Below are positions 34,199-57,620 of a stretch of DNA of 64,000 nucleotides, one piece after another. The DNA lies in contig CAWDXE010000007.1 of the NCBI GenBank assembly GCA_963806185.1, positions 928,001 to 992,000 on the forward strand, read 5' to 3'. Made by a program: the position numbers and the translations under genes. This stretch comes from an uncultured candidate division Zixibacteria bacterium. GTDB lineage: Bacteria; Zixibacteria; MSB-5A5; GN15; FEB-12. The notes under the pieces are model-generated. The model saw only the letters and a list, made by a program, of their open reading frames with translations, had not been told where the DNA came from and ran no database searches. Position 1 is the stretch's first letter; the number at the start of each line of letters is the position of its first letter.

Positions 34199-34717
34199 TC
34201 ACGGCATGAGCAGGATAGTTTCTTTGACCTGGGCGTCCATCGGTTGGTTGGCCGGGATAACCCCTTGCCCCCCTTTGATGAGCAAACCAAAGCCGAGAAT
34301 GAAGGAAATAATCTTCTTGTTGCCGCCCTTGGCCACGAGTGGACCGTCGGGTCCGGCCAGCGCAAGCTTACGGTTGTCGGGGGAGTTGTAGAAACCCTTC
34401 GCGTCGAGTTCACCGAGTTCGACCTCGATAGAGCCGGGCTTGCCGGGCTTGCCCGCGGGCTGGACCTTTTTCACCGTAGCCGTGCCGGTGGCTCCTGCCT
34501 TGACGACCGAAATGCCGCCGACAACGATAGAATCAACCAATTTGATCGGGACCTTGTCGCCGACCTTGGCACTGCCGGATGAGACCTTTTCTGTGAAGGC
34601 GACGCGGACCTTGGTGCCGGCGGGCACTTGCACCTGAGCGAAGCCAAGCGCAGTCAGCGCGAATAGCGCAACCAAGATCAGGATGAACATCTGTGCGGAG
34701 CGATAACGTATAGCCAT
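34199..34717 (-). CDS. Secreted TrbI/VirB10-like beta-domain protein, last gene of the T6SS operon
   Basis: Signal peptide; VPAGTKVRVAFTEKVSS..AKVGD...VVKAGATGTATV...G..GKPGSIEV; hydrophobic IISFILGFGLLIKGG; VIPANQ. Confidence 0.55.
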   Translation of the reverse strand: MAIRYRSAQMFILILVALFALTALGFAQVQVPAGTKVRVAFTEKVSSGSAKVGDKVPIKLVDSIVVGGISVVKAGATGTATVKKVQPAGKPGKPGSIEVELGELDAKGFYNSPDNRKLALAGPDGPLVAKGGNKKIISFILGFGLLIKGGQGVIPANQPMDAQVKETILLMP

Positions 34718-34737
34718 GTCGTGACCTCCTGTCGGAA

Positions 34738-36972
34738 CTATTGAATAACGGGCAGAATATCAATCAATTTCTTGTCGAATACGATGGTAACGGACTGCGA
34801 ACCTATGGTCAGCGTTCCTTCCATTTCGAAGAGAGCGAAATCACTATTCAGGATTCTTTTGACTTCGCTTCGCTCGCCCCAGTATTCGTCTTTGCCGTCG
34901 TGATTGTCAGGGTCGAGAGCAATGTGAATCTCATCCCCCGCCTTCCACTTGAGGACGTACGGCTTAGGGAACGTGGAAGTGACAGTCTGCCCCCTGACCC
35001 AGGCGTCGGGTCGCCCCGGTTCTTTCACCATGATGTGCAAGTGGTGACCGGCCGGAATGTTGGTGGCGCGGTAGGCATAGTCGCCGCGCTTTGAGAAAGC
35101 TTCAATTCCCTGGACGTAACGATCAATCTTGGAAATCGCGTTGGCATTATTGGCTGGGTCGACACTCAGCGTCTGACGGGCCTCTTTCAGTTCCCGGACA
35201 GCGCCTTTGACGCGGTACATGAGATCAGTGCTGGCGTTGATGCGGTCGAACAAGCCGCCGATTTCAGAGCCAAGCTGACCGGCTTCCTTGCGCGTCTGCT
35301 GGACGACGGTTTTGGCTTGTACAACCTGTCCCAGGCCGCTGAAAGCCTCGACCAGAGCCGGACCCATTTGCGCCTTGTCCTGAGCGACGCGGTCGCGCAT
35401 CTGCTTGAGCAGTTCGGGATCATCGGGGGCGAAGATCATGCTGCGGAATTTCTGCCACATCCAGACGGCGCGGTCGGCGTCGGTCTTAAGTGTGGAATTC
35501 TCCGGGGCCGCTGAAGCAATGGACTGGAAATTGTCGCCCACTTTGACAAATTCGGAAGCGTCGAGATCGTCGACAAACAACGAATCGCCGCCATCTACTT
35601 TCCGAGACGGCCAGAGGGCGGTGTCGCGAACGATGCCGGTGAATTTGTCGAGCGAGACCTTCAGTTCGCGTTCGAGATCATCCACAGAGGCGGAGGTGTA
35701 TTTGCGATAGATGTCCTGCGCCACGAGGGCGTAGCCGGGGAAGAACTGCTTAACAACGAACGATTTTGAGTACCGTTCGTAGGCATTCCGAATTTGATTG
35801 CGCGGCTCTTTCGGCATGGTAAAGTAATTCGCGCTCGGATAATGTTCCCGGGCCGTGTCCTCCACCCGGGTGGTGAAGGGCAATTGATACCAGAAATGGA
35901 ACATGAAGGGAATCGAGTAGACGATGATCCAGATGGCGGCGACGATCGAGGTCCATTTGGCGACCGTGCGAAACCGGCTGATCGATTTGTTGCGGGCGAT
36001 AGCCTGGAGAATCCAATAGAACGGGGCTTTCACGCCGATGGGCGTAAGTTTGTCCGGCGGACGGTACTTGGAATGACCGACGTCGGAGCCAATTTTGATC
36101 GGCGGCTGGCCGGTGGCCGAGACGAAGAAGATCTGGAAATCCAGGGTCCGTCCCAGCACGACGCGCAGGAGTTCGCGCGATTTTACGAGGATGTCGCGGA
36201 CTTCACCCGCCCAGGTCTGGTTGCGCGTGAGCGCGGGTTCGGTCATGACCTTGGCGACGAAGGTGTCAAAGTCTTCCGAGATGGCGTGCTCATTTTCCGG
36301 AGTAAGCAGAGTGATCTGCGCCTCGTCGCCAAAGCCGGCGAGCGTGTCGGATTTGGTGACCATCAGAGCGATCGGGATAGGAATTCGTCCCTGATGCGGG
36401 GCGATGCGCTCAAGGATGGTGACGAAGGTCTCCACGCGCGAGCGGCAGCCCAGTTCATCGAAGCGCAGTTTGGGATCGAAGACAAAGATCAGGGCGTCAC
36501 AATTGCAGAAGAAGTCGATAGCCTTTTCGCGCTGTTCCGGATTGCCGCCGAGCGACAGGATTTCGCCGGGGAAATCATAGCAGACGACCGGCACCTTGGC
36601 GCTGCCGTTGAGAATCGCCGTGAAGCGCAGGATCAGATCATGCATGGTGGCGTCCGGGAACGATTTATCACCCATGCGTTCAAAGCGAGTGCCGGGACCC
36701 TCGCTGACGGCCCGGCCGGTGATGGCGCGGGTGTTCTTGACCAGTTCGTTGGAAGTGGCCGTGTCGGAAACAGACAGTTGCAGTTCGCCGGCGAAGCGAG
36801 ACTCCTCGTACAGCACGGTGTAGAGAACGGTCTTACCGGTATAGCCGTGGCCGACGATGCCGATCTTGATGCCGGAGGGCCACTGCGTGGTAACCGCTGG
36901 TTTGCCGCCCTTCTTCCCTGAAGCGGCAAGCTTTGCTTTCTTTGAACCTAAGATCAGACTCGAAATATCCAC
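34738..36972 (-). CDS. Membrane-anchored TRAFAC-like GTPase domain protein (candidate TssM analogue)
   Basis: G1 GHGYTGKT, G3 DFPG, G4 TKSD, G5-like VSATG; single TM WTSIVAAIWIIVYSIPFMF; large helical then beta C-terminal region. Confidence 0.75.
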   Translation of the reverse strand: MDISSLILGSKKAKLAASGKKGGKPAVTTQWPSGIKIGIVGHGYTGKTVLYTVLYEESRFAGELQLSVSDTATSNELVKNTRAITGRAVSEGPGTRFERMGDKSFPDATMHDLILRFTAILNGSAKVPVVCYDFPGEILSLGGNPEQREKAIDFFCNCDALIFVFDPKLRFDELGCRSRVETFVTILERIAPHQGRIPIPIALMVTKSDTLAGFGDEAQITLLTPENEHAISEDFDTFVAKVMTEPALTRNQTWAGEVRDILVKSRELLRVVLGRTLDFQIFFVSATGQPPIKIGSDVGHSKYRPPDKLTPIGVKAPFYWILQAIARNKSISRFRTVAKWTSIVAAIWIIVYSIPFMFHFWYQLPFTTRVEDTAREHYPSANYFTMPKEPRNQIRNAYERYSKSFVVKQFFPGYALVAQDIYRKYTSASVDDLERELKVSLDKFTGIVRDTALWPSRKVDGGDSLFVDDLDASEFVKVGDNFQSIASAAPENSTLKTDADRAVWMWQKFRSMIFAPDDPELLKQMRDRVAQDKAQMGPALVEAFSGLGQVVQAKTVVQQTRKEAGQLGSEIGGLFDRINASTDLMYRVKGAVRELKEARQTLSVDPANNANAISKIDRYVQGIEAFSKRGDYAYRATNIPAGHHLHIMVKEPGRPDAWVRGQTVTSTFPKPYVLKWKAGDEIHIALDPDNHDGKDEYWGERSEVKRILNSDFALFEMEGTLTIGSQSVTIVFDKKLIDILPVIQ

Positions 36973-37006
36973 TGATGTATCCTACTAAGTTGCCCGGAAT
37001 CGATGG

Positions 37007-37957
37007 TCAGCGCGAGCCGGCATCGGTCTTAACCGCAGGTGAATTATTCGCGGGCGACGTTACGTACTCTTCCTGAAATTCCTGCAATTTGTGTTGCGTG
37101 TGTGACGACCAGAGTTTGGGCACCAGAATTGCCAGCGCTATGCTGACAATGATGATCCCGGCATACAACCCGTAAGCCGCTTTGCGCTGGGTCATGGTTA
37201 GCCAGAAATACCGATTACTCGAGAACGAACCCCGGAATTTGCGGCCCATTCCCGAAAATGAGGCTTTGACGCGGTCCCAGAATCCTATCTCAGTGACATA
37301 TCCCCATTCGCCAAAGTACAGGGCGGCCAGTTTGTCGATCTTGCTTTGCTTGTCGAAATACCCCAATTTCTGCAGAGTATACTCGAGAGAATTGCGGTCG
37401 CGCAGCAATTCGTTGCCGAATTCGAGCCGACGCCTGCCGAGTTCGAGTAACTGGTGTGGAAGCGACATCGCCTGCAAGGCCTCGGGCGACAGTCCGGCGT
37501 CAATTGGTGAGCCAAACTTGCTGGCGAAACGGGCGATTTCTCCCAGAAAGAAGACGTGCAGTCGGAAGTTGCCGTTCAGGGAGCCGGTCTGGAACAACTT
37601 CGGCACAAGGTGGTTGGCCATGTACGCAATGTCCTGCTTAATGGGACGGACACCACGACAATATGGGTACGCACGGTTATTCTGACCTTCGACTACAGCT
37701 ACGGACTCGAAATAGGAGACCAGAATCTGAACGGATAACTCACGCAGATCGGACGAATTCAGCGGTTGGGTCTTGATCTTTTCAAACAAGAGCGAGTCGA
37801 CCTCGACCGCCTTCTCCTTCTGGTGCCGCAGGGTGCCGAAAACGGCATAGATGCCATTATATGTTTGAAGAAAAGCCTCGGTCTCGAACTGAGCGTACTT
37901 GGTTTCGTACGTCTCGAGATAGGCGAAGAGGTCATTGATATAGTTCAGTGCGTCCAT
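37007..37957 (-). CDS. C-terminally anchored membrane protein (candidate TssL analogue)
   Basis: Helical soluble N-terminus with one TM near the C-terminus (YGLYAGIIIVSIALAILVP); lies directly after tssK. Confidence 0.6.
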   Translation of the reverse strand: MDALNYINDLFAYLETYETKYAQFETEAFLQTYNGIYAVFGTLRHQKEKAVEVDSLLFEKIKTQPLNSSDLRELSVQILVSYFESVAVVEGQNNRAYPYCRGVRPIKQDIAYMANHLVPKLFQTGSLNGNFRLHVFFLGEIARFASKFGSPIDAGLSPEALQAMSLPHQLLELGRRRLEFGNELLRDRNSLEYTLQKLGYFDKQSKIDKLAALYFGEWGYVTEIGFWDRVKASFSGMGRKFRGSFSSNRYFWLTMTQRKAAYGLYAGIIIVSIALAILVPKLWSSHTQHKLQEFQEEYVTSPANNSPAVKTDAGSR

Positions 37958-37981
37958 GCCAGCTGGTCCTTAACTATCAAC

Positions 37982-39419
37982 TCACACCGTGTAAACCGAG
38001 AGATCCGACTTGCGCATAGCCGACAATTTATCGGCAATAGCGGCGCCGGAAACAATCAACGTGAAGCGCCGAGCCGACGGGTGGCGATCCATACCGTCGG
38101 GCCTGAGCACAACTTTGCTGCCATACGAGACCGAGTCGATGACCACCGGGTCGACTTGCCCGAGGCCGGTGGACTTCGTTGATACCGAACTTGGCGCGCA
38201 TGCCGGACCACTCTCCAGCCGAGAGCAGTTCCTTGGCTACAAATACCAGTGCATCGGATACGGCCATCGGTTGGGCGAGATTGATCGATAAGTAGGTCAA
38301 TTCGCCGATCCGTTCCACTTTGTGCTCGCCGAACGCGGCCAGACGATAGGTGCGACCGTTGTAGGTGAGCGTTTCTTCGACAACGGCCCCGCGGTCGAGC
38401 TTGACCGGATCTTCCTGAGCCAGGAAACCGAGCACGCCGCGTAGTCGAGCCAGGATGTCGTCGATAGCTGCGAGCCCTAATGCTATTTGACGATGATCAT
38501 AGTCGGCCAACAGGAAAGTGTCGACGGCGGCCTCGAACGTGCGAACGTCGCCTTCCCCCTGCCGCGAGAAAAACTTCTCGTTGAGGTGGTCGCGCAATCT
38601 GGGCTGGAGCAAGAGGGCAGTGCGATAGAGACGGAAGAGCCTCTTGAGGAGAGCGACCATTTCGGCCGGATGCCCGGCGTTGCGCGTGGTGATCAAGCTG
38701 TCGGCGAACGCGGCGGTATGAGTGGCGCAGGCGAACAGCGCCTCGCGGACGGCCATTTGCAACTCGGAATCGGCAGGAGCCGCCGCAACCTTCTGATAGC
38801 CGGTGGCCGCTAATTTGAGAAGATTCTCTATGCGATTGCGGAATTCCTGAGCCTTGGCCATGAGTCGGGCGTCAGCCGACAAGGAGAGGCACGGAGGAAT
38901 ATAGCGATCTGAAATAGCTACCGAACCGCCGGCGACATTGATCTCGGCGACTTGCAGATAGTGTCCAACCGGAAGATCGGGTGGCTGACTCAAATGAAGT
39001 CGGTAATCAAAGGCGCGATACGGCGGCCTTGGAATATCTTCTCCGGGATCCGGCTGGCCCGCCTCACGTTTCGCCTGAGGCGACAGGCTGATATAGACCG
39101 GTACAGCGGCGTCGGACACTCGAGTATCGGCCTTCACCACGGGTTCGGTGGCGGGGTTGATTTCAACCACGCAGTAATCGGATGTAAGGGCCTGACAGCG
39201 CACTACCTGAACGGCCAGCGTAGAGCCGCTGAGGCTCAAGTGGAGGCTGAGCGAGGGCTCGCCGGAGGACGATTTGGCCGCCAGACCGTAATAGTCCCCT
39301 CCGCGCAGCGCATACCAGCGCACGAGGTTCTCAAAGTAAGCTTCCTGGTCGCGAAGGTGCTGCTCGCTCATGAGCATACCATCCTGCCAGTTTACAGAAA
39401 GAAGTCGAAATTCACTCAT
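37982..39419 (-). CDS. tssK: T6SS baseplate subunit TssK (apparent +1 frameshift near 38170)
   Basis: VNWQDGMLMSEQHL..QE, YGL, CQALT, GQPDPGEDIPRPPY, YIPPCL. The +1 frame continues ...GQVDPVVIDSVSYG...LSVYTV* to 37982. Confidence 0.8.
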
Positions 39420-39479
39420 CGGAAACGTCACATGCGTTAAATGTTCAGTCCGCAATCTACGGACAGTTTATGGTCGGTG

Positions 39480-40433
39480 TCAAGACACCTTTGCCCGCAT
39501 CTGTCTATCGTTCTTTGTTTTGGCCAAACGGGCAGTATAGCCCAGACGATTGAGTCGATTTGGACCGGCGAGCCGACCGGCCGTAGGTAGACTGGCCACC
39601 CGCACGCGGCAGTTCATCCCCGCAGGCAGACAGACAGACAGCACCTCGTCCACCTTCCTCCGCAGGGGGTGGTTTGGCAGGAGGTCGGCAACCTGGTTCG
39701 GTGGGACATCGTGCACCGTCACCTCAAGAGAGGTATCGCACTCTGAGAAACTATTGCCCAGCACAGATTCGTGCCCCAGCGTATTCTGGTTCTGACCGAG
39801 TCTCCAGCGGAGTGCCTCAGGAGTCTCATGTCGGCTTTCAACGTTTTCCTGTATGGTAAAGCGAAAGCCAAAAAGGGCCTGGAGAAATCGTTCGACAAAG
39901 CGGGGGTTACCGCCCCAGTGGTAGAAGCCGGGCATAGACTCGGCCCAGACGCGCAGAGCATTGAGATCGGATTCCCCGACAGCGGATTGGTCAAACAACT
40001 GCAAGTAACGGGTCAAGTGGTGCTCGGACAGGATGCTGAAATTATAGGCCAGCGGCACGAGGACTGCCATCGCCTCAGCGTGCATAACCGCGGCGTCGAA
40101 GGGCGCCATGAAGCGGCGGGCATTATCTTCCCACTCGCCGGTACGATCGATATTGCCGGCCAGACCGTAGAAAAATTGGTACGGGAGAATATCAACGGCA
40201 CTGGCGAAGCCAACGTTTAGCGTAATGATCGAACTCGGGTAAAGCTCGGCACCCGGCGGTGGGTCCTGTTCCTGGATTTCACCACGGTAGTTGCCGGAGC
40301 TGCCCACAGCCAGGAATTGCATCTGGTGTGCCTCGACACCCAGTCGCTCCAGGATGATCAAGGCGACGGGTAGCGTGACAGGAGCACGTCGGTTTGAAAG
40401 ATTGGGCATGAGTTGCAGGCTCACCGGGCTCAT
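39480..40433 (-). CDS. tssG: T6SS baseplate subunit TssG with N-terminal PASTA-like domain
   Basis: DILPYQFF, EDNARRFMAPFD, WRLGQ..LG...LG, as in Bacteroidota-type TssG; ATGA overlap with tssF. Confidence 0.75.
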   Translation of the reverse strand: MSPVSLQLMPNLSNRRAPVTLPVALIILERLGVEAHQMQFLAVGSSGNYRGEIQEQDPPPGAELYPSSIITLNVGFASAVDILPYQFFYGLAGNIDRTGEWEDNARRFMAPFDAAVMHAEAMAVLVPLAYNFSILSEHHLTRYLQLFDQSAVGESDLNALRVWAESMPGFYHWGGNPRFVERFLQALFGFRFTIQENVESRHETPEALRWRLGQNQNTLGHESVLGNSFSECDTSLEVTVHDVPPNQVADLLPNHPLRRKVDEVLSVCLPAGMNCRVRVASLPTAGRLAGPNRLNRLGYTARLAKTKNDRQMRAKVS

Positions 40434-42079
40434 CGAGTTATCACTTCCACCTTGTATCGAGTATTGACGGCGGATCGAGCGGTGAGGAATCTCATCAGAC
40501 GATCGCGCGTCAGTTCAAGTTCCACTTCGGAGAGAAAATCATCCGCCTTGACATGGGCCTCCACCACAAGACACCGGCGCATACCGCGCTCGCCGCGTTC
40601 CACTCCCGGCCGGCAGTTGACTCTGGAGATTCGGGGATCAAAAGACGCGGTCCAGCGCTGAATGTCGGCGAAGGAGAGGGCGCGATCGCGCCCGCGCAGG
40701 CGAGCGGCAACTTCGGCCATCAATTGTTCTTCGTTGCGAGCCGGGACGGCTCCTTTAGACGGAAGCAGATTGGCCACGCTGGTGATACCGGGGTGAGGTG
40801 TGAACATCTCGTTTATTTTGCCGGGATCGATACCGTTGGCTTTGGGGCCAAGGGTCACACCGTAGAAGACGGTCAGTGATTCAGGGATGACATCGGCGGT
40901 CGGCGGAATCTCAATCCAGACGACGATGTGGTCTCTCCGTTCCTCCGTTGAGTACGTGTACATCTCCGGAAGAGACGAGTAGTGGCTACGCGTGCCGTAT
41001 TCGGTGCCTCGGGAGTCGACGACCCGGGAGATGCCGAGGACCTGTTCTGAGGGCTCAGGAAGTTCCATCTCAATGACGCGATTGGTGCCGGTGTGCTTGA
41101 ACAACGAGAGTTCATCCTTGTTGACGACGACGCAGCAATCAGTAAGCAATCGAGGCGTTTCGGCCAGGGCGCGGCGGTCGCCGCCAGCCGGCAGGTCAAT
41201 GCGCAGCCAGAAGAGCTTCTCGGCATCGTAGGGCATGGCAATACCTCTACGGGCGAGTTCTTCGCGAGTGTCTTCAGATATTTGGGATGGATCCCATTTT
41301 TCCACAAAGGATTCCGGGAGCCCGAGAAACTGTTCCTGCAGAATAGCGAACAGGTCATTGGTCGAGCGGAAGCCGCCCCACTGGCGGTCGATCAGCTCGT
41401 CCTTCAATTCTGCATTGCGAGAACCCGGACAGAAGCCGAATTCCTCGCGGAACCGCCCGGTGGCATCCGCGGGCAACCAGTTTCCCCAGATGATCTGTTT
41501 GGTGGCTTGAGGTTGGCCGTGAACAAACATCTGCGCTCCGGCCAACTGATGCGGGCGGCCATCGAAAGCCAGCCCAACCAGCAGGAAGCCCTGTCCCCGT
41601 CCGGGGATTTTGGCAGCCGTGGTCGAAGAAGCCAGCAGGTCGACTGCGACCTGATCGACGACGGCAAACATCTGGCGAACGGTCGTCTTGCAGAGACGTT
41701 CCGGCTTGAAAGCGGAGAAGTAGAAGGTATTCCCCCCGCGCCGCTTTTCCTGGTAGGAGAACTTGGTATTGACGTCGATCTCAACTACCGGGTCCAGGAG
41801 TTGACACTGCAGTACGGAGAAGGCGGGAACCGGCCAGCGGCTGATTTCGGGATACATCGACTGGATGAGCGCCTTGGTGGCGCGATCCCAGACCTCTTCA
41901 ACTCGTTTCTCGATTGTGGAAAGCTGATAGGCGTAGAGCTGCATCAGCATGCGCAGGACCGGGTCCAGTCGTTCGGCCGATTCCGGTGTTTCCGGATTCA
42001 TTCGCCGAAGCTGCCGGTGCATTTCGCGGAAGATTTCGTCGTGGGCTCTCGCCCGTCCTTCAATAGGTGTGCCCGCCAT
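40430..42079 (-). CDS. tssF: T6SS baseplate subunit TssF
   Basis: RLDPVLRMLM, P....PVPAFSVL, T.G..ANGI, LRGRDRALSFADI; position between tssE and tssG. Confidence 0.8.
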   Translation of the reverse strand: MAGTPIEGRARAHDEIFREMHRQLRRMNPETPESAERLDPVLRMLMQLYAYQLSTIEKRVEEVWDRATKALIQSMYPEISRWPVPAFSVLQCQLLDPVVEIDVNTKFSYQEKRRGGNTFYFSAFKPERLCKTTVRQMFAVVDQVAVDLLASSTTAAKIPGRGQGFLLVGLAFDGRPHQLAGAQMFVHGQPQATKQIIWGNWLPADATGRFREEFGFCPGSRNAELKDELIDRQWGGFRSTNDLFAILQEQFLGLPESFVEKWDPSQISEDTREELARRGIAMPYDAEKLFWLRIDLPAGGDRRALAETPRLLTDCCVVVNKDELSLFKHTGTNRVIEMELPEPSEQVLGISRVVDSRGTEYGTRSHYSSLPEMYTYSTEERRDHIVVWIEIPPTADVIPESLTVFYGVTLGPKANGIDPGKINEMFTPHPGITSVANLLPSKGAVPARNEEQLMAEVAARLRGRDRALSFADIQRWTASFDPRISRVNCRPGVERGERGMRRCLVVEAHVKADDFLSEVELELTRDRLMRFLTARSAVNTRYKVEVITR

Positions 42080-42082
42080 AGT

Positions 42083-42457
42083 TTAACCCAGATTGTAGAA
42101 GGCTTCAAACGGACGCAAGTGGCCGCCATCAGTGTATTCGCCGGTAACCTTGACGGCTACACCAATGCTGCGCGTCCCCACCGAAGTCGGTTGTTCGAAG
42201 GAGACAACGACGCTGGAAAGGCGGCGTTCGTACTTCTGAATAGCGTCACGGAGTCCGGAGCGAAGTTCAGATTTATTAGATGCCTGAATGTCGGCGTATT
42301 CGCGATCCCAGATGACCGAGCCGTATTCAGGATCGAACGGCAGTTGGCCCTTGCGAGTGGAGAGAATCAGACCAATCGAATACATGATTGACTCCTGCAG
42401 CGAAACGGACGGAAGATAGCCGTCGCGCAGGACGAGTGGAAGACCGAGGTAACGCAT
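42083..42457 (-). CDS. tssE: T6SS baseplate gp25-like TssE
   Basis: SIMYSIGLILSTRKGQLPFDPEYGSVIWD, AIQKYERRL. Confidence 0.88.
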   Translation of the reverse strand: MRYLGLPLVLRDGYLPSVSLQESIMYSIGLILSTRKGQLPFDPEYGSVIWDREYADIQASNKSELRSGLRDAIQKYERRLSSVVVSFEQPTSVGTRSIGVAVKVTGEYTDGGHLRPFEAFYNLG

Positions 42458-44319: not shown

Positions 44320-44330
44320 CAATAGTCAAA

Positions 44331-44371: not shown

Positions 44372-44776
44372 TTATTCCTGCCACCGGTTATCGATGCTGG
44401 CGTCAGCAATGCTGAGCGTCTGGCACGAAATCTGAAACTCCTCGTAGACCTGCTGGTCGGGACTCTCTTTGACGTGCGGAATAGTCTCCTTGTACGACGT
44501 AATGAAACCGTCGGTCCAGGTCAACTCTTTCATGACCGAGTCGTCGGGGTTGCGGAAGATGACCTTGCCGCCCTTCCAGTTCGGCTTTGCCGAGTTCATG
44601 GCCCAGGAAGCCATGGTGGTGTCAGCCGTCGATTCGCGGATGACGGTAATCACGCCGGCGTGGGCGCGGTCCGAGGGGCGACCGGTTTCGTCTTTCGCGG
44701 TATAAAGTACGTACGTGACCGAGTAGACGTTCGGATACGCGACTCCCTCAACTTCCAAAGTAGGCCGTCTTGCCAT
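44372..44776 (-). CDS. tssD: T6SS tube protein TssD/Hcp, Bacteroidota type
   Basis: 134 aa; DETGRPS...GVITVIRES...W......GGKVIF....MKEL.W..G.I.SY.E. Confidence 0.88.
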   Translation of the reverse strand: MARRPTLEVEGVAYPNVYSVTYVLYTAKDETGRPSDRAHAGVITVIRESTADTTMASWAMNSAKPNWKGGKVIFRNPDDSVMKELTWTDGFITSYKETIPHVKESPDQQVYEEFQISCQTLSIADASIDNRWQE

Positions 44777-49395: not shown

Positions 49396-49425
49396 AAGGT
49401 ACGAATTCACAAATAAGCTTGTCAA
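49396..49425 (-). promoter_or_regulatory. Sigma70-type promoter candidate of the T6SS structural operon
   Basis: TTGACA-N18-TACCTT, 65 nt upstream of ATG 49331. Confidence 0.55.
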
Positions 49426-49525: not shown

Positions 49526-50215
49526 TCATCTGGCGTACAGGTCAAACCAGGAAAGATTCAACTCCTTTGCCCAGGACATAACGGCCCGACCAGGCGAAGC
49601 CTGCACTTTGAGAGTGACAAAACCGATCTGCCGGCCATCGCACCACCAATGCAGGTGGTCGATGTGATCCGAGTGATCGGGGGCGGTCGGGGGTTGCGTC
49701 TGAATCCCCAAAGTCAAACCGTCGTGGGTTTCCGTCTGCTGCGGTTCAAAACGAAGAGATTCCGTCAACACGGCCGCAGCTACTTTTTTGACGAATTCCA
49801 GGGTTGGTTGGTCGGGTGGCTTGGGCCAGTCCAGGGTGATGCTGATGAGACAGAAAGTCTGACCGATGTCGATCTGCTTTCCCGCCCATTGGTACCGGAC
49901 TCGCACGATATCGCACCGGTTTTGACGATCTCCGGCAAATGCAATATAGCGGGCATCGCCGGGTGGCTGGGCGGAATCGACCATGATTTGGTCAATCCAG
50001 GAAGTGGCAATCTCGACGGCTTCTTTCTGGCCAGGTGCGCGACCGGGTGTGGTACCAGCGGTCAGCGCATCCTCCTCCGTTTTGGTCAAGGAGACAAGTT
50101 GGGCACTTACGTTGTCAAATGGCATAGCCGATTCCTTCCCTTTCTCGGTTGGATTTCCGCAAACGGCCAGGACAAAAGCAATGGCAGTCAGGGTGGCAGC
50201 CTGGCACGGCTTCAT
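49526..50215 (-). CDS. Putative lipoprotein, candidate immunity protein of the LysM effector
   Basis: MKPCQAATLTAIAFVLAVC lipobox-like; ATGA overlap with the upstream effector stop. Confidence 0.55.
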   Translation of the reverse strand: MKPCQAATLTAIAFVLAVCGNPTEKGKESAMPFDNVSAQLVSLTKTEEDALTAGTTPGRAPGQKEAVEIATSWIDQIMVDSAQPPGDARYIAFAGDRQNRCDIVRVRYQWAGKQIDIGQTFCLISITLDWPKPPDQPTLEFVKKVAAAVLTESLRFEPQQTETHDGLTLGIQTQPPTAPDHSDHIDHLHWWCDGRQIGFVTLKVQASPGRAVMSWAKELNLSWFDLYAR

Positions 50216-51549
50216 AGCGGCGGCATATGCGACCACGCCTCGGGATCCCATATTGCCTCCGGACAGGGGCCTGGATTCTTGCAGAAGCCGGCGGCGTTAC
50301 TCACCCAGACCGTGGCCACAACCATGGCCTCCATGGCCGCGGCCGGGGAATCATAACAGCTTTCGCCGATGCAGTAGTATTTCTCGCCGTATTTCACCGT
50401 TCCTTCAAAATTGTTCCACCCCTGGTAGGCCGTCTTGCGTTTCGAGTGATCGCGAAAGATAAGCTTCTCGCTCGCTCCGTGCGGAGGATCAGGATTTGGG
50501 TGGGTAGCCGCCACACCGCGCGACTCGTTGGCTTTGCCTGAGCGGTCGAATTTACCGCTTCCCTTCAGCATGCCGGGATACAGATGCCCGAGCACAAATT
50601 TGTCCGGCAGGCCGAGCATTTGACAACTCTTTTGGAAGAGGTCGGCCAGGGCGTTGCATTCGGCACGTACTCCGCCGAAGATCTTCCAGACAGGATTGGG
50701 ATACGGTGCGCCCAGAAAGTAGTGGCCGATCTCCTGGCCGGAAATTACTTTGAAGACGGCATCAACATACCCCTGTTCATCGCGGGGAGACTCGGGATTA
50801 TCCGTGAAATATTTATCCACCCATGTTGTGAGCGCATACAGCCGCTTGACGGTCGGGGCGCTGCCGTACGGCTTGTCGTAGGTCAGCATGATATGGTGAG
50901 GGCCGGTGGGTCCGAGGTCAAACTTACGCTTGCCGATGTCGACCTCCCAGGACAACTGGACCTTCCAAGTCGCGATTTCATCCCACAATGGGGCTTCAGC
51001 TTCGAGGGTGGCCTCACCCCGGCCGTTTTCAATCTTAAATTCCTGGTCAACGAAAGACACTTTGAGCTGGTCACCCTTGACTCGGACGATGGCCTGCTCG
51101 GTGACGTGGTCGGCAGGCAGTGCTTCCACTTCGACAGTGATCTTGAGTTTCTGATGCTTGGTGTGTGAGATAGGGGAGTTGAGACGAGGGGTCCACTCCG
51201 GTTTGGGGAAGCGGTTTCCCGTATCGGTCCAGTCACGTTTGTTGTCGAGGAGCAGGTCGTGATCGGAGACGAACTTCAGGCCCTTAATGGAGAGGGATTC
51301 TATCTTGCGTGGGGCACGCCGGAAGAAACGAAAGATGCCGCCCGTGTGACTTCGGGCGCGATTGGGAGTGGCAGGAATCCAGACACGCTCGCCAACCGAG
51401 AGTTCGTTATGGTCAGGGTGTTTCTTTCGAAAGCTCTCGTTCCGGTCGTGGTAGTAGATCACTTTCCAGTCGGCCAGACCGTAGGTTCGGGCCAGGCGTG
51501 AGAGCGACTCTCCACGCTCGACAACATGATAGAATCCACCGTTGCTCAT
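50212..51549 (-). CDS. LysM-domain protein with transglutaminase/papain-like C-terminus, candidate T6SS effector
   Basis: HVVERGESLSRLARTYG...ELSVGERVWIP; AECNALADLF...CQMLGL helix. Confidence 0.6.
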   Translation of the reverse strand: MSNGGFYHVVERGESLSRLARTYGLADWKVIYYHDRNESFRKKHPDHNELSVGERVWIPATPNRARSHTGGIFRFFRRAPRKIESLSIKGLKFVSDHDLLLDNKRDWTDTGNRFPKPEWTPRLNSPISHTKHQKLKITVEVEALPADHVTEQAIVRVKGDQLKVSFVDQEFKIENGRGEATLEAEAPLWDEIATWKVQLSWEVDIGKRKFDLGPTGPHHIMLTYDKPYGSAPTVKRLYALTTWVDKYFTDNPESPRDEQGYVDAVFKVISGQEIGHYFLGAPYPNPVWKIFGGVRAECNALADLFQKSCQMLGLPDKFVLGHLYPGMLKGSGKFDRSGKANESRGVAATHPNPDPPHGASEKLIFRDHSKRKTAYQGWNNFEGTVKYGEKYYCIGESCYDSPAAAMEAMVVATVWVSNAAGFCKNPGPCPEAIWDPEAWSHMPPL

Positions 51550-52448
51550 GACTTGTCTTCGCGGCCGACGATCTGGTCAAGACTCGGCCATTCGATCACC
51601 ACTTCACCGGGCGGGAGGTCCTCTTCCTTCAAGTTGCCGTCGGCGTCGAGCTTTCCCTTCCGCTCTGAACCATCAGCCAGATGCAGGACATAATCCTCGT
51701 TGGCGACGGGGTTGCCGCTTTCATCAAGCACCTGCAGTTGGAGCCAGTCCTTAAACCGCAGGAGCCCGCTCGCCTGATCGACGCCATATTCGGTGCCGTC
51801 GACGCGGACGGTGAAGAAATACTCCGGATGGGCATAACTGCCGCCGTGCTCGGCCAGCTCATCGTTGGTGGGGATTTCGTCGACGTCCTCGTAATACTCG
51901 TACTCCCATTTCAGGTCGAACTTGCCGTCGTTGACCTGAACCGGCAGCTCCACTATCGGGTCGTGACACCCGTCGGCGTCGAATTCGTACACCACAAGTG
52001 TGACTTCCCAGCCGCTCGGCACACCTTTAACTTTACCCGAGAGTCCTACGATATCACCGCGTGTGGCCCGGTCCGCGCTCCATTTGAGTTCGCTGACTAC
52101 GACAGGCGGGCGGGCGGGAATGTGGTCGGATTCTCCCTTCACGCCGTTTTTGGACAGCTCAACTTCAAAATATACGGAGTCGCCGGATTCGATATCATCA
52201 GGAATGGGAATGGCACCCAGGAATCGGTTGCCCCGAACCTCACCCTCGATCTTACCCAGTTTCTTCCCCTTGTCGCTTTTGCCGGTCAATTTTATGGGGG
52301 CACCGTGTCCGACAAAGGCAGTCAGCACTTCACAGCGAGCGTCCTGGCCGCCGAAGGCAACCGAAGAGAGCCAATGGGCGGAGACAAGCGACGGATCGAG
52401 CTTGATCTTTTCTTTTTTGTCGGTGCTGACGGTGTGGGTTTCCGACAT
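51546..52448 (-). CDS. T6SS-associated acidic beta protein with transthyretin-like C-terminal module (candidate adaptor)
   Basis: C-terminal about 180 aa visibly similar to the C-terminus of the PAAR protein (VLDESGNPVANEDYVLHLADGSERKGKLDADG). Confidence 0.6.
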   Translation of the reverse strand: MSETHTVSTDKKEKIKLDPSLVSAHWLSSVAFGGQDARCEVLTAFVGHGAPIKLTGKSDKGKKLGKIEGEVRGNRFLGAIPIPDDIESGDSVYFEVELSKNGVKGESDHIPARPPVVVSELKWSADRATRGDIVGLSGKVKGVPSGWEVTLVVYEFDADGCHDPIVELPVQVNDGKFDLKWEYEYYEDVDEIPTNDELAEHGGSYAHPEYFFTVRVDGTEYGVDQASGLLRFKDWLQLQVLDESGNPVANEDYVLHLADGSERKGKLDADGNLKEEDLPPGEVVIEWPSLDQIVGREDKS

Positions 52449-52459
52449 GACTGCCGCAA

Positions 52460-52891
52460 CTAATCTATGGGTGTAAAACTCTCTAAGATTTTCTCTACCT
52501 GACGACCGATGGTCTTGGCCGTTTTCTTGGAGAAATTGGCCGTGATGGTATAGGCGATACCGCCCGTAATAATGAAGATCAGTTTGCGGATTTCCGCCTG
52601 TTGGGGAGCCGGCGTGGTGGCATAGGCGAATTCATAGGCGGTAAGGCCATTTCCCAATTCCCGTTCTTCGGATTTCAGTGTCCTGGCATCGGGACGGGAC
52701 GCGAGCGTCTGGTCAATGTGCGAACGCGCGTATTCGCGAAGGGACTGCTTTCCGGCCTCGCGATCGAGTGTAATGACGAGGGTATGGTACACGCCTGACT
52801 CCTGGGGACCGCTGAAGGTGTACACGGTCTGCTCGTGCCAGTCGGATGGGAGTTTGAGATCGAAGCCGGGGTGTCGTCCTGATTTCGCCAT
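52460..52891 (-). CDS. DcrB/PsbP-like (DUF1795/Eag-like) candidate effector chaperone
   Basis: LKLPSDWHEQTVYTF, LVITLD, SLREYA, AYTIT, ILESF; 143 aa. Confidence 0.7.
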   Translation of the reverse strand: MAKSGRHPGFDLKLPSDWHEQTVYTFSGPQESGVYHTLVITLDREAGKQSLREYARSHIDQTLASRPDARTLKSEERELGNGLTAYEFAYATTPAPQQAEIRKLIFIITGGIAYTITANFSKKTAKTIGRQVEKILESFTPID

Positions 52892-52893
52892 GA

Positions 52894-53673
52894 CTATTCG
52901 CCTGTTGAAGTCCAATCGCCAAGTTCGCGCACCAACTGGCCGTTTCTCCAGATAAGATAATACGTCCTGTTCCGAAGGGAAGTGCCGGTGCTGTCGATTT
53001 CGCCCTCGACGCCCTCGACCACGGTCTTCCCGTCGCCGAGATGGGACGAGGGTTCCGTGGCAATAGCAGAATCAAGAATGGGTACGAGCATCTCGTGGAC
53101 ATGGGTTTGATCGGTGCCAAATGACCAGGTCGCTGTGCCGACGCCCGGCGTGTTGATCGAGGTAGAGTCGAAGATCACGAAGCGCCAGGTAAGGAGACCA
53201 TCCTCGGCACAGCGCTGAGCCAATACCACGGGACTGGCAACCGAATCGCTCAAACGGGCCATAACAACTGATTGGCAACTGATTTCCTCCCATACGTCGC
53301 TCGTGTCGCCGGCTGATCTGAGCAGTTGATGACCGACAATCTCGGACGGAGGAATAGCATTGAAGTAGAGGATTTTGGTTTCCCAATCGGGCCCGTAAGG
53401 AGTGTATGGGTGCACTCTTTGATCGAGGGGCACGGAGACAATCAGCAGCGGCGTTTGAGCGCCACCGAACGAGATTGCCGTGTCCAACTCCACGAAAGAG
53501 TCCTTTCGCTGGGTCTGGGTTACCCAGTTGCGGGCGTCATCGCGTGTGGGTTGGTGGCTCGTTTGGGCAACTTCACGAGCGCAGCCAATCATCGTCAGAA
53601 GGGCCGCTGCGGCAAGGCAGGTCAAGAGCGATATTCTCGGGAAAGTACTCGACAGATTCATCGTGGGTTCCAT
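52894..53673 (-). CDS. Lipoprotein, candidate immunity protein
   Basis: Lipobox-like LLTMIGC; starts 1 nt after the 777-aa gene. Confidence 0.6.
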   Translation of the reverse strand: MEPTMNLSSTFPRISLLTCLAAAALLTMIGCAREVAQTSHQPTRDDARNWVTQTQRKDSFVELDTAISFGGAQTPLLIVSVPLDQRVHPYTPYGPDWETKILYFNAIPPSEIVGHQLLRSAGDTSDVWEEISCQSVVMARLSDSVASPVVLAQRCAEDGLLTWRFVIFDSTSINTPGVGTATWSFGTDQTHVHEMLVPILDSAIATEPSSHLGDGKTVVEGVEGEIDSTGTSLRNRTYYLIWRNGQLVRELGDWTSTGE

Positions 53674-53674
53674 T

Positions 53675-56008
53675 CTATGCGGTCAAATAGCAATACAGCC
53701 ACTGTTTCGCAATCGGTGGTTGGGGTTTTGGATCGCCGTCCATTATTTCAACCCTGGTCAGAAGTTTCTGGCTCACCAGTTTGTCTGCGATCGCCTTCAC
53801 TTGCTGCAACGCCTTGTTTTGTTCCTGCTCCAGAGCCGACAATGCCTGTGCCTTCGCCGAATCTCCTTTGGCGGCCGACTTCTCATACTGCTCCGCCAGT
53901 TTTCCGTAATTGAGCGGCAGGACCTCCAGCGCCAAACCGTCGCCGCCGGCCACTATTGCTCGCGGCACCACTGAATTCTTGATCCGATAGCGCAGGAGTT
54001 GGACATACTTGAGTAGATTTACGCTACAACGCATGGGAGACGCCAGTTTTTTTATATCGGCGTAGGTGAAATGGGCCGATAGCTGAGGATTCGAGTTGGG
54101 ATTGCTGGCGCCGGTGAGGTACTTGCGATCGGGCGTAAAGGCGAGTTCGTCGGCCATGGCGCCCGGCGTGCCTCCGGCAAGGGCGGCCAGTTCGTCATAG
54201 ATCAGGTCGACCTGGCGTTTCAGTTCGGGGTTGTAACCGGGGGTTGATTCGTCCGCGTCCTTTCTCCCCTGCCACTCCCACGGCAGGTACTTGCCGCTCA
54301 CTTGACACATAGTGCGAATGAGATTACCAGCGTGCAGCCTTTTCGAATAAAGAGCGGCATTGGCGGCCGAATATTGGGGCAGGGCAAATTGTTTGAGGAA
54401 TTCCCGGCGGCCAGCCTCGGTAAAGCGAGGTTGCCTGAGGAGGAGGCCAATAAAATCGGCGGTCCCGAAGGCTGAGAAGACTCGCAGCCACGGGTTGCGC
54501 GTGGTGTGACCGGCGGTGGCGTGTGCCCAGACGGTCGCCTGATTAATACCGTTAGCCAGAAGTCCGCGCATCAATATCCACCCCAGTGATTCGGCGCCGA
54601 TTTCTTCACCGGGATCCGGCTTGCCGTACGTTTTTTCCGAGAAGCGATCGACGCCTCCAGTGATCGAACGGCCGCAGTTGCAGGCGTAGAGCGGGATGAC
54701 CAAATCCGAGGTTACATCGTTCTTGATCATACTTACGAAGTCATCGGCAGAGGTGACGGTGAGACAGCCGGGGTCACTCCAATTATCCATCTTCAGTTCT
54801 GTCTTCTGCCGGATACCGTGAGAGTAGATGGCGAGCATGGATACTTTTACCGGATCGGGCAGCGCGGGGTCGGTGATGCCTTTGAGTTTAGACTTTAGTG
54901 TGGTGAGGCTTGAGCCGATTTTCTTGTAACTGTCGATTTGATAGAAGCCGAACCGGATCTTGCTCTTGTCTTCGTCGTAGAAGATCGTCGGCAGAGTGCT
55001 GATCATTTCCTCGGCCTGGTTCTGAAATTCCTTATTATTCAGCCCCTTCTTGATTCCAGCCTCGGCTGCGGCGATCTTGTTGTTGGCAAGGCCAATCTGC
55101 TTCTTGGCTTCTTTCAGTTTTTGGCCATTGTCTGTATCCAGATATTTTTTGTAATCAGGAGAAGTGAGGGGATCGAGGCCGGCCGGTGGCGTCGCGCCGG
55201 CTGGAACCGGGTCGTTTCCGTACGTCTTCTGCTTCCAGAGCGCGTCGGCGGCCGATTTGAAATCGGCCTTTGCCTTCTCCAGTTCTTTCTGGCCCTCAGC
55301 CTTCTTCTGCGCATTGTCTGCATTGGCTTCATCAGAAAACGCCGCGCGGTAATCGGCCACGAAGGCGACAGCGATTCCTTTGCGTTCATCCAACTGTCGA
55401 CGGATTGTTGCCTCAACATTGCGGACGACATAGGGCCGGGCGATTTTGGATTCACCGAAAGTGCGATCCAGAGACGTCGTTGTAAGGGTAGCAGCGAGTT
55501 CGAGAATACCTTCGTATTCCGGAAGGGGGATGACAAACTGGGAAGGGGATGATTCACCGGCACGGGTCAATTCAAAGGTGACCTTGCCGTAGAGCACGTT
55601 GACGTCGCTTTCGACCAGAGACGGCGACGAGGTGGGGCGGAATTGGTATCCGCCGGCAGTCCGCACAACCACGCCGGGAAAGGTTGCCAACCACTGATTC
55701 TTCCGTTCATTGAGGTCGGTCTCTTCATTGGTGAGAACGCGATTGATCGGGAAGAAATCCAATTCCCAGAGCTGGAGGTAGCAGTCGGCCGAGGTGGAGT
55801 CGGAGACGGTATCGGGCGTGTGAAAGGGAACGACGGGGATCTTGCCGGGCAGTTTGTGAGGTCCGGTCAGCGATACAGAATGCTTGTACGCCTCGACAGG
55901 ACCCGGCAGAGCATCACCAGTCTTGAGTGCGACGGTGAAAGCGGCTTCCAGTTTTGCCGGCTGCCTGGCGGCAGATTTCTTTTTCGCTTTCGCTGGTGGC
56001 GCGGCCAT
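53675..56008 (-). CDS. 777-aa candidate T6SS effector with putative clan-CD-like His/Cys dyad
   Basis: No signal peptide; coiled coil; LAIYSHG...IPLYACNCG; lies in the PAAR operon and is followed by a lipoprotein. Confidence 0.55.
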   Translation of the reverse strand: MAAPPAKAKKKSAARQPAKLEAAFTVALKTGDALPGPVEAYKHSVSLTGPHKLPGKIPVVPFHTPDTVSDSTSADCYLQLWELDFFPINRVLTNEETDLNERKNQWLATFPGVVVRTAGGYQFRPTSSPSLVESDVNVLYGKVTFELTRAGESSPSQFVIPLPEYEGILELAATLTTTSLDRTFGESKIARPYVVRNVEATIRRQLDERKGIAVAFVADYRAAFSDEANADNAQKKAEGQKELEKAKADFKSAADALWKQKTYGNDPVPAGATPPAGLDPLTSPDYKKYLDTDNGQKLKEAKKQIGLANNKIAAAEAGIKKGLNNKEFQNQAEEMISTLPTIFYDEDKSKIRFGFYQIDSYKKIGSSLTTLKSKLKGITDPALPDPVKVSMLAIYSHGIRQKTELKMDNWSDPGCLTVTSADDFVSMIKNDVTSDLVIPLYACNCGRSITGGVDRFSEKTYGKPDPGEEIGAESLGWILMRGLLANGINQATVWAHATAGHTTRNPWLRVFSAFGTADFIGLLLRQPRFTEAGRREFLKQFALPQYSAANAALYSKRLHAGNLIRTMCQVSGKYLPWEWQGRKDADESTPGYNPELKRQVDLIYDELAALAGGTPGAMADELAFTPDRKYLTGASNPNSNPQLSAHFTYADIKKLASPMRCSVNLLKYVQLLRYRIKNSVVPRAIVAGGDGLALEVLPLNYGKLAEQYEKSAAKGDSAKAQALSALEQEQNKALQQVKAIADKLVSQKLLTRVEIMDGDPKPQPPIAKQWLYCYLTA

Positions 56009-56030
56009 AATTGCGTATGCGACGGTCGCC

Positions 56031-56468
56031 TTACTCCGGTTGGCTATCGAATTCAGCTTCCTGATCGTCTGCAGTCAATTCATTTCCGGTGGGACCCTGA
56101 AAGGCATCCCGCTGATCCTCGAGCGCCGTAAACGGCACGCTGACCTCGACCGGCGTTGCCTCCGGTGGAATCGCCGGAACGATGTAACTGGCGTCACCGA
56201 CATGAAGCTGATAGTCGCCAAAGTCGGCGGGTGAGTGCTGAAACTTTCCCTGATCGTCAGTCTGGTCCTTGATTGACAGGCCGTGCCCTTCAAGCGTGAA
56301 GGCCCGTTGGGGCCACGGTTCGCCGCCGGCCTCACTCTGCAAAACGAAGGAAATTGCGCCAACACCATCGGGGAGAATCGTGAAGCTGTTCGTACGACCG
56401 GGAACAAGGCTGATCTTCTTCCCTTCGAAGGCGCTGCCATAGACATATCGGTGGTACGGGTCGCTCAT
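56031..56468 (-). CDS. Small T6SS-associated protein with transthyretin-like module
   Basis: FVLQSEAGGEPWPQRAFTL...QTDDQG...GDYQLHV; 3 nt after the PAAR gene. Confidence 0.55.
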   Translation of the reverse strand: MSDPYHRYVYGSAFEGKKISLVPGRTNSFTILPDGVGAISFVLQSEAGGEPWPQRAFTLEGHGLSIKDQTDDQGKFQHSPADFGDYQLHVGDASYIVPAIPPEATPVEVSVPFTALEDQRDAFQGPTGNELTADDQEAEFDSQPE

Positions 56469-56471
56469 GAA

Positions 56472-57620
56472 TCACTCCGGCGCGGATTCCGGTTCGGGAC
56501 GCGGAAAGTTGGGAAAACGCAGCCAGTGGATGGCGGCCGGTACCGGATCGAGGGTCGCTTTCCCGGACGAATCAAGTTTCCCGTCGCGCACTTCCCCGTT
56601 GGAGAGGAAAACCACGTAGGGTTCGTCTTTCAGGGCGTTGCCGTCTTCATCCTTGGCTTCGATTACTATCTTGTCAGTAAACGTAATCAGGGCCGAGCGC
56701 GCCTCAAGGGCTCCGATGCGGACCTTGAAGAAGTACTGCGGCAAGCTGTACGCCGAGCGGCCGTCGGAGAGGGTCGGAATCGAAGCGAAGGAAGGGTATT
56801 CGAACGCCCATTCTCTTTCGATGCCGTCGCTCTTGACGGTAACATCGGGAATGACGGTGACCATCTGATCCGGCTGTTTGATATCGCGCAGCCAGACTTC
56901 GAGCTGAGCAGGTGTGCCGTCCTCGACACCGACCGTGCTCACGGTCACCTTCACCTTGTCGCCGGCTTTGGCCTTGTCGGTCGACCACCGGGCTTGCGTG
57001 ATCGCCTTAAAAGCAACATCGTAATCACCTTCATCGGCCGCATTACGCTGGATGACGCCGGTGGACAGCTCACCGGACGACTTGCCGTCGGGATGAGTAA
57101 TTTCATGGACGACGCCCGTTATCGGGAAACCGCCCTTGTCGACTATTTGAACGTCGAGGAAGTGACCCTCAACGTCGTCTTCTTCGCTATCGCTGGAGTC
57201 TGACTCGCTTTCGGAACTTGCGTCGGTGTGACCACCTTCTTCGGCGGCGGCAGTTTCGCGATCGCCTTCTTTAGCACCGCCGCTTCCCCCTCCGCCGCCG
57301 GCTCCGCCCCCTCCCCCGCCGCTATCGCCAATCAACACGGTAGGGCATCCGCCGACGATTGAATCCGGTGGGCCGGCGCAAGTGGCCATGTCGCCCATTC
57401 TGGCAGCAGGCATTCCGCCGATAAGCACGGTTGCACTACCTTTCATAATGGGACCGCCGACGTGTGGTGGCGGCGGGACGCCGGGGTTGAGCATCGGACA
57501 GACGTGCATGTCACCCATGCGGGCGGCCGGCTGACCACCGATGAGAACCATCGGAAAGCCGACGACGATTGCTCCGCCGTGAGCGGTACTGTCACCAAGT
57601 CGAGCTGCTGGTTGGCCCAT
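56472..57620 (-). CDS. PAAR spike-tip protein with Gly/acidic linker and C-terminal extension
   Basis: Three PAAR motifs (PAARLGD, PAARMGD x2) with His/Cys ligands. Confidence 0.93.
   Translation of the reverse strand: MGQPAARLGDSTAHGGAIVVGFPMVLIGGQPAARMGDMHVCPMLNPGVPPPPHVGGPIMKGSATVLIGGMPAARMGDMATCAGPPDSIVGGCPTVLIGDSGGGGGGAGGGGGSGGAKEGDRETAAAEEGGHTDASSESESDSSDSEEDDVEGHFLDVQIVDKGGFPITGVVHEITHPDGKSSGELSTGVIQRNAADEGDYDVAFKAITQARWSTDKAKAGDKVKVTVSTVGVEDGTPAQLEVWLRDIKQPDQMVTVIPDVTVKSDGIEREWAFEYPSFASIPTLSDGRSAYSLPQYFFKVRIGALEARSALITFTDKIVIEAKDEDGNALKDEPYVVFLSNGEVRDGKLDSSGKATLDPVPAAIHWLRFPNFPRPEPESAPE

Follow-up and report, generated by a model that had tools for sequence, protein, structure and literature searches.

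Type VI secretion systems (T6SSs) are told apart by the complex that anchors their contractile tail in the envelope, TssJLM in subtype i (T6SS-i) and TssNOPQR in subtype iii (T6SS-iii). In the accessible text of Bongiovanni 2024 (PMC10781749), subtype iii occurs only in Bacteroidota, none being reported from more than 20,000 other genomes, and three histories are left open for the two T6SS membrane complexes. According to the accessible part of Kandolo 2023 (PMC10564176), TssLM of Acinetobacter functions in the absence of TssJ, having recruited other proteins of the envelope. GAP1-N2 is the partner of the DO-GTPases of ternary conflict systems (Kaur 2020, PMC7159879, accessible sections).

The window analysed here is a stretch of 64,000 nucleotides from an uncultured candidate division Zixibacteria bacterium (assembly GCA_963806185.1, contig CAWDXE010000007.1, positions 928,001 to 992,000; contig C7 of our set), whose genome is 82% complete in 8 contigs. 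The locus encodes a TssB/TssC sheath, an Hcp tube, a VgrG/PAAR spike, TssEFG with TssK, and a ClpV-type ATPase; tssK is followed by three genes for proteins of 316, 744 and 172 amino acids (aa), hereafter the trio. On balance, we favour the reading that this is a T6SS with a Bacteroidota-type tail, in which the trio is likely the membrane anchor, made of a strongly diverged TssL–TssM pair and of a secreted barrel protein that takes the place of TssJ. The literature searched, largely open-access, holds no description of a T6SS in Zixibacteria or of such an architecture; the search did not extend to the supplements of PMC10781749 and PMC7159879, which could list such genomes or GTPases.

Contractile tail and distribution of the system

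The structural operon is a single minus-strand run of clpV(N), clpV(C), tssB, tssC, tssD, vgrG, tssE, tssF, tssG, tssK and the trio, every gene lying where an earlier reading without database searches (the sequence-only reading) had placed it. The sheath subunits TssB (46297..46737; PF05591, 3e-7) and TssC (44854..46281; PF17541, 2e-73) are both T6SS-iii-like, and are followed by the TssD/Hcp tube (44372..44776; PF17642, 5e-21), the VgrG spike (42457..44322; TIGR01646, 7e-42), TssE (42083..42457; PF04965, 6e-13), TssF (40430..42079; weak PF05947 match, 1e-3, and family profile against T6SS-iii TssF, 5e-31), TssG (39480..40433; PF06996, 5e-16) and TssK (37985..39455; TIGR03353, 6e-16, below cut-off). 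The N-terminus of TssG gives a PASTA-like match, weak in the window and at E 1.6e-6 in a related locus (L031, 6686-7600; also L081:6601-7527), which is unusual for a cytoplasmic baseplate protein. TssK has about 480 aa in relatives, is full length in most of them and joins a T6SS-iii-like core to an extra C-terminal region; residues ~345-482 are absent from T6SS-iii TssK and leave the T6SS-i head unmatched (E 0.34), and we regard this region as a candidate docking domain for the trio.

The ClpV/TssH ATPase is encoded in two pieces, an N-half with Clp_N and AAA-1 (47873..49331) and a C-half with AAA-2 (46758..47876), which overlap by 4 bases and are both recognised by Pfam and NCBIfam. Among the 60 loci compared (40 from the near clade, 20 from distant lineages; picked for long contigs, hence non-random, and including kin that are not independent), 51 encode the two AAA modules of ClpV in separate genes and 9 have a fused ClpV; all seven loci of families f16 and f17 belong to the fused set. 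The halves overlap by 4 bases in 21 loci and by 1 base in 10. The two-piece Clp ATPase is a conserved trait. Extracellular contractile injection systems (eCIS) have neither TssK nor a membrane anchor and use an Afp15-type ATPase; the presence of TssK and a Clp-type ATPase bears out the earlier view of a cell-anchored, recycled T6SS rather than an eCIS.

The affinity of the tail was assessed with family profiles. The TssB profile matches Bacteroidota plasmid proteins at 1e-22 to 2e-25 and Zixibacteria T6SS-i proteins at 2e-9 at best; the corresponding values are ~1e-80 versus 0.02 for TssC and 1e-31 to 2e-40 versus 4e-8 for TssK, and the TssE and TssF profiles likewise favour Bacteroidota T6SS-iii over Zixibacteria T6SS-i. 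TssD, VgrG, TssG and ClpV match subtype iii in a comparison that had no T6SS-i reference for VgrG, TssG and ClpV. Judged by these profiles, the tail (sheath, tube, spike and baseplate) is of subtype iii and lies outside Bacteroidota, as the sequence-only reading had proposed from a T6SS-iii-like contractile tail; TssC, TssD and TssK are of iii type.

Neither canonical membrane complex was recognised, in keeping with the same reading. TssN, TssO and TssR profiles had no match in five genomes (the window's and four more, four of the five at least 93% complete), with positive Bacteroidota plasmid controls. By tblastn, one TssQ query gave no match, and one of two TssP queries matched contig C1 at 9e-5, outside the locus. 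DotU (PF09850), IcmF-N (PF14331), SciN for TssJ (PF12790) and ImpA-N for TssA (PF06812) had no match over cut-off in the five genomes, with a positive E. coli control, and a local TssA profile was likewise without match. A TssJ-profile match on contig C3 of the window's genome (E 1e-3) was rejected as an unlinked lipoprotein-like open reading frame (ORF). The profiles thus found no canonical membrane complex elsewhere in this 82%-complete genome.

Homologues with taxon names are Zixibacteria, which agrees with the earlier assignment to a lineage resembling the Fibrobacterota–Chlorobiota–Bacteroidota group and distinct from Bacteroidota. In a survey set of 285 Zixibacteria genomes, TssC of the window's type matches 151, of which 115 belong to the near clade and 30 to three distant families; the other 6 are weak (E ~1e-6) and were left out, so that 145 of 285 genomes are counted with the system. 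Two weak sheath-like matches per genome (E ~1e-6) in family f9 (G190-G195) possibly belong to an eCIS or a prophage. Full canonical TssM of T6SS-i occurs in 23 of the 285 genomes, one of which (G179) also has the window-type system; the two systems are nearly mutually exclusive within Zixibacteria. The canonical T6SS-i loci (L104-L120) come from families f7, f19 and f20 and four other genomes.

Beyond Zixibacteria, named loci with the system include records from Eisenbacteria (L140) and Krumholzibacteriota (L208, L215). Among 80 named loci, a set that overlaps with the collection above, the 316-aa gene is present in 58 of the 60 having tssK, and T6SS-i TssJ, TssL, TssM, TssA and TagF were found in none. 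The 316-aa family profile retrieved 51 clusters from 1.84 billion representatives; 20 were looked up, and both taxon-named ones are from Eisenbacteria. A metagenome scan with a single protein yielded 14 loci. The Eisenbacteria/Krumholzibacteriota-type group (L131, L134, L136, L138-L143) has two tandem tssD genes, a more variable gene order and, where seen, a fused ClpV; one of its members, L139, bears the title Saccharimonadales and is perhaps a binning error.

The three genes downstream of tssK

The order clpV-B-C-D-vgrG-E-F-G-K-316 is kept in 40/40 near loci, apart from scattered gene breaks. The trio is bound to this order: tssK and the 316-aa gene occur together in 40/40 near and 18/20 distant loci, the 316-aa gene adjoins the GTPase gene in 39/40 and 13/20, and in 38 of the 40 near loci the GTPase gene adjoins the 172-aa gene and the full trio follows tssK. 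The synteny on which the sequence-only reading had staked its proposal is therefore present.

The 316-aa protein (37007..37957) is tail-anchored, with a helical N-terminal domain and a transmembrane (TM) segment at residues 261-279; a single C-terminal TM segment is found in 56/58 members of the family. It has no Pfam or NCBIfam match over cut-off. In a structure search with its AF2 model (pLDDT 89.6), the TssL/DotU chains 4acl, 4v3i, 3u66 and 7thw are among the top 50 of 48,161, and each aligns 134-137 of 153-168 residues to the same region of the model. Foldseek returned nothing at E<=0.001, and hhalign of the family against TssL gives E 0.085. On the evidence of the model, the protein is likely a remote TssL/DotU. 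An identity with TssO was tried and rejected, as the weak matches (E 0.0075 and 0.038) fall on different regions in two TssO sequences.

The 744-aa protein (34738..36972) likewise has no Pfam or NCBIfam match over cut-off in the window. Its model (pLDDT 89.4) shows a Ras-like GTPase domain (33-330), a long helix with the TM segment (~336-354), a helical region (388-627) and a C-terminal beta domain (630-740); among homologues, one TM segment is predicted in 44/52, two in 3 and none in 5. Residues G41, G46, K47, K207 and D209, of the P-loop and the T-K-x-D motif, are invariant (52/52). GTP binding is therefore predicted, and the protein would be an intact GTPase. Its nearest family is DO-GTPase2 (PF19993, 23.1 bits in the window with a cut-off of 27, and 28.5 in L081; Atlas 0.94). 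A Walker B glutamate, said in the accessible text of Kaur 2020 (PMC7159879) to define DO-GTPases, is found in 14/52 at position 137, which we read as the published site.

Profile–profile comparison links the same protein to TssM. In a 6x7 hhalign grid against T6SS-i proteins, the GTPase pairs best with TssM (E 7e-4, 204 columns, collinear through the TM segment) and TssK with TssK, while cells outside the four best pairs stay at 0.027 or above; the grid misses true TssC homologues (TssC against T6SS-i TssC, E 0.12), so its negatives are weak. Global alignment of the GTPase with TssM N-domains gives E 6e-6, whereas the exported parts do not align (E 0.13). The two have P-x-x-L-V-x-T-K-x-D-x-L-x-G-F and F-x-S-x-T in common. 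Block shuffles reached the observed scores in 0/30 each, under a lenient null that the non-significant TssL pair passes too. Among 20 complete PF14331 matches below cut-off within the phylum, 18 lie on positions 25-83 of the profile and in GTPase-sized frames, 5 of these verified by coordinate and the rest inferred from adjacency or frame length. We take the 744-aa protein to be likely a remote TssM.

In distant lineages the GTPase gene is followed by a 270-aa gene, which is absent in the near clade and in the window's genome. This gene pairs with TagF in hhalign (E 1.2e-3, best of its row) and shows sub-cut-off GAP1-N2 matches in families f5 and f16 (E 5e-4 to 8e-3, in 3/3 distant-lineage proteins scanned). 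Since it resembles both, a kinship of DO-GTPase/GAP1 with TssM/TagF is suggested, yet unproven. In the Zixibacteria T6SS-i loci the order is tssJ-K-L-M-tagF-A-B-C, where we assume J, L, A and tagF from size, position and motifs; on these assignments, the tssK-L-M-tagF order of the new loci in distant lineages matches that of T6SS-i. In family f5 (L071-L080, L090:16675-18256), clpV is preceded by a gene for a Ser/Thr kinase, L090 adds an FHA gene, and the TagF/GAP1-like gene is present as well. PpkA, Fha and TagF control T6SS-i, and these f5 genes echo them.

The 172-aa protein (34199..34717) has a signal peptide, no lipobox and no Pfam or NCBIfam match over cut-off, and is a candidate partner on the outer-membrane side. 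A second hydrophobic patch (136-154) is conserved near the C-terminus of the family, of which 2/38 members have a lipobox. Strong orthologues were found in 108 of the 115 genomes of the near clade, and also in 2 further genomes that lack TssC. In L083, L121, L122 and L123 a homologue stands beside the GTPase gene in convergent orientation; in L123, one of the f17 genomes, both lie together away from the tail genes. The earlier description of the third gene as TrbI-like is borne out only indirectly: PF03743 matches 0/38 family members and none of these genes in 285 genomes, and the family does not match a true TrbI either, but it can be aligned with two small proteins that are themselves weak PF03743 matches (hhalign probability 88 and 73). 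TrbI is among its nearest named Atlas clusters (0.79, a lead only). A TssJ match (hhalign E 2.6e-3) over 23 columns was judged too short. An outer-membrane role for this protein is the least certain step of our model.

If the trio is read as a TssLM-type anchor, TssK would join the VgrG-PAAR/TssEFG baseplate to the cytoplasmic domains of the TssL-like (316-aa) and TssM-like (744-aa) proteins. ATP hydrolysis by TssM of Agrobacterium is reported to gate assembly (PMC3346141), and the nucleotide cycle of the predicted GTPase, recognised by motifs and fold, may similarly gate assembly or firing. The 380-aa exported part of the GTPase could form, with the TrbI-like 172-aa protein, a channel towards and through the outer membrane, which is the least certain element. 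On contraction, the sheath would propel the tube into neighbouring cells together with PAAR-bound effectors, which the variable operon upstream would supply, and recycling of the sheath would fall to the two-piece ClpV. Several observations weigh against this reading. Each homology signal is weak: no trio protein matches TssN, TssO, TssR, TssL or TssM over a curated cut-off, the three family profiles retrieved nothing meaningful from PDB sequences, and a local TssM profile fails to single out the GTPase of the window.

Alternative explanations and flanking features

The weakness of all TssL and TssM links leaves room for an anchor unrelated to these proteins, namely a DO-GTPase/GAP1 conflict module that was co-opted independently and whose likeness to TssLM is convergent, a view close to the sequence-only reading. 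DO-GTPase2 as the best family of the GTPase, the GAP1-N2 match of the gene behind it in f5/f16 and the TM segments often carried by DO-GTPases (accessible text of PMC7159879) would all suit it. However, three positional counterparts, TssL by fold and TssM and TagF by profile, each match the T6SS-i gene of the same slot, and the defining glutamate is kept in only 14/52; we consider independent co-option rather unlikely. Should DO-GTPase/GAP1 and TssM/TagF be relatives of each other, the two explanations would become one. The sequence-only reading had called the trio a different trans-envelope anchor: its constant place beside tssK (38/40 near loci) stands, and its separateness from known anchors is not supported, as fold, topology, profile–profile comparison and gene order point, weakly but in concert, to remote TssL, TssM and, in distant lineages, TagF.

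A second alternative concerns the window's own copy. Two one-base frameshifts, overlooked in the sequence-only reading, lie within ~15 kb, one in tssK (~38175-38179), after which the ORF 38028-39455 ends off-frame, and one near the start of clpV-N (~49276-49278), where the ORF 47873-49273 stops short of homology that begins at the ATG at 49331. They could mean that the operon is decaying in this genome, whatever the family does elsewhere; only 1/32 sampled gene matches of the window's genome has a frame change, that of tssK, which indicates no high genome-wide error rate in the sample. Both frameshifts, however, sit in short homopolymer runs, where long-read errors typically fall, an assembly of 8 contigs and only 82% completeness is compatible with indel errors, and gene breaks are found here and there in further assemblies (L034, L038, L039, L066, L071). 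Decay is unlikely, and the frameshifts are probably assembly errors.

Least credible is a trio acting as a membrane-bound GTPase switch or inner-membrane tether without a trans-envelope channel, the pore being unrecognised elsewhere or action being limited to the inner membrane: intact GTPase motifs (52/52), the short exported part, the lack of a lipoprotein (lipobox 2/38) and the GTPase gene lying apart from the tail genes in f17 would fit, yet the operon has no other conserved membrane gene, near-clade loci end with the trio (38/40), the exported 172-aa gene tracks the system, and TssK and ClpV are retained, and we hold this highly unlikely.

Both operon boundaries of the sequence-only reading are likely. 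A likely sigma70-type promoter on the minus strand (49396..49425; TTGACA at 49425-49420, TACCTT at 49401-49396) received no call in a consensus promoter scan; its motif letters are present, and a -35/-10 pattern recurs at most 143 nt upstream of clpV in 32/38 related loci compared with 107/2000 background windows. At the other end, a stable minus-strand hairpin followed by a U-rich stretch (34123..34158) is a likely terminator: the fold z is -4.15 and 0/200 shuffles were as stable, while a terminator scan did not list it. An 11/12 sigma70 match at 34107-34134 overlaps the 3' arm of the hairpin and faces the next gene (31772-34033).

Upstream of clpV, the minus strand carries the PAAR/effector operon of the sequence-only reading, in which PAAR holds good and the effectors remain candidates. 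It encodes a PAAR protein (56472..57620; 4e-24) whose C-terminal domain recurs in a 300-aa protein (51546..52448) found upstream of clpV in many loci; a 145-aa protein without Pfam or NCBIfam match (56031..56468); a 777-aa candidate effector in a variable slot, with no family match (53675..56008); a 259-aa exported candidate immunity protein with an N-terminal hydrophobic segment (52894..53673); a DcrB/PsbP-like protein conserved beside the system, a likely effector adaptor (52460..52915); a 445-aa candidate effector with a weak LysM-like N-terminus, E 0.08 (50212..51549); and a 241-aa possible lipoprotein with a lipobox-like motif, a candidate immunity protein (49526..50251). PDB sequence searches with the 777-aa and 445-aa proteins gave nothing meaningful. 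Variable large genes thus lie among conserved PAAR, DcrB-like and 300-aa genes, and behind each large gene comes a small one with an exported product, a candidate case of the usual effector–immunity pattern. In other loci the variable slot upstream of clpV holds further candidate effectors, a protein-arginine deiminase domain protein (E 3e-43; L082:16825-19461) and a large LysM protein (L037:16706-19867). Just upstream of the PAAR gene lie a membrane Ser/Thr kinase gene (PEGA, Ig-like) and a MetA-pathway-like barrel gene (57727-61243), and at 61914-63957 an M14 peptidase ORF overlaps a MAM/TSP3 ORF; the two are probably parts of a single gene that a further frameshift has broken.

Evolution and comparison with described systems

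In single-gene trees built with FastTree, the new systems form one clade, with Bacteroidota T6SS-iii as its sister (TssK 0.995, TssB 0.82). An IQ-TREE analysis of TssB and TssK with 21 rows, from which 5 redundant rows and rows without either gene had been dropped and which holds only 3-4 plasmid-borne iii sequences, does not recover this clade: T6SS-i joins f5 (55/56) and subtype iii joins the Eisenbacteria-type group (69/60). We do not claim monophyly of the new systems, as support is weak and the trees do not fix the root. Under both tree shapes, an L/M-like block is present in the closest neighbours of subtype iii. Of the published histories this favours the first, with a TssLM-type complex ancestral and replaced in Bacteroidota; horizontal gain of the block is possible. 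Tentatively, and as an idea we consider possible rather than probable, the new loci would be a distinct T6SS subtype keeping the ancestral state of subtype iii, a TssL-TssM(-TagF) anchor later swapped for TssNOPQR in Bacteroidota, with TssM/TagF and DO-GTPase/GAP1 forming one family bridged by this GTPase, with GTP gating, and with a VirB10-type barrel as exit instead of TssJ.

The combination of an iii-type tail with a TssK-L-M-TagF-like block favours the TssLM-ancestral history, which can thereby be put to structural and phylogenetic test. Further points of interest in the locus are the candidate anchor, compact, free of a lipoprotein and made of three proteins, the possibility that TssM/TagF and DO-GTPase/GAP1 are connected, and a ClpV conserved in two pieces. 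A contact weapon may be present in about half of the Zixibacteria genomes, where scans that depend on TssJLM or TssNOPQR could overlook it.

Compared with T6SS-iii (B. fragilis GA3; accessible text of PMC10781749), the window system has the same TssB, C, D, E, F, G, K, VgrG and ClpV families and the same lack of a TssA or TssJ profile match. It differs in lacking TssN, TssO and TssR, in its occurrence outside Bacteroidota, in a TssK ~100 aa longer, in one fixed gene order and in a usually split ClpV. With T6SS-i it has in common the gene order after tssK (TssK-TssL-TssM, with TagF in some lineages), a tail-anchored helical protein, an NTPase-TM-exported architecture and weak fold and profile links, all matches being below cut-offs; unlike T6SS-i, it has no TssJ lipoprotein and no TssA, its TssM-like protein has 620-740 aa (~1130 in T6SS-i) and no N-terminal TM segment, and its tail is not of subtype i. 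The Acinetobacter complex (accessible part of PMC10564176) likewise does without TssJ, a co-opted protein in its place being proposed here too, yet it is an ordinary subtype i system whose TssL and TssM can be recognised.

DO-GTPase/GAP1-N2 ternary conflict systems (accessible sections of PMC7159879) resemble the locus in a GTPase nearest DO-GTPase2, a GAP1-N2-like gene downstream in f5/f16 and a TM segment after the GTPase. The window-type GTPase differs from them in being single copy, in its unconserved Walker B glutamate, in the absence of the GAP1-like gene in the near clade and in being embedded in a T6SS, a context not met in those sections; no FNIII or GASH component turned up in the operon, genome-wide searches for them not having been made. 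The TrbI/VirB10 barrel is approached by the 172-aa family through the two small PF03743-like proteins, and differs from it in that the family has no direct PF03743 match and no other type IV secretion genes lie nearby. By its defining anchors, as far as sequence comparison tells, the system is a T6SS of neither subtype i nor subtype iii, and arguably represents a new subtype.

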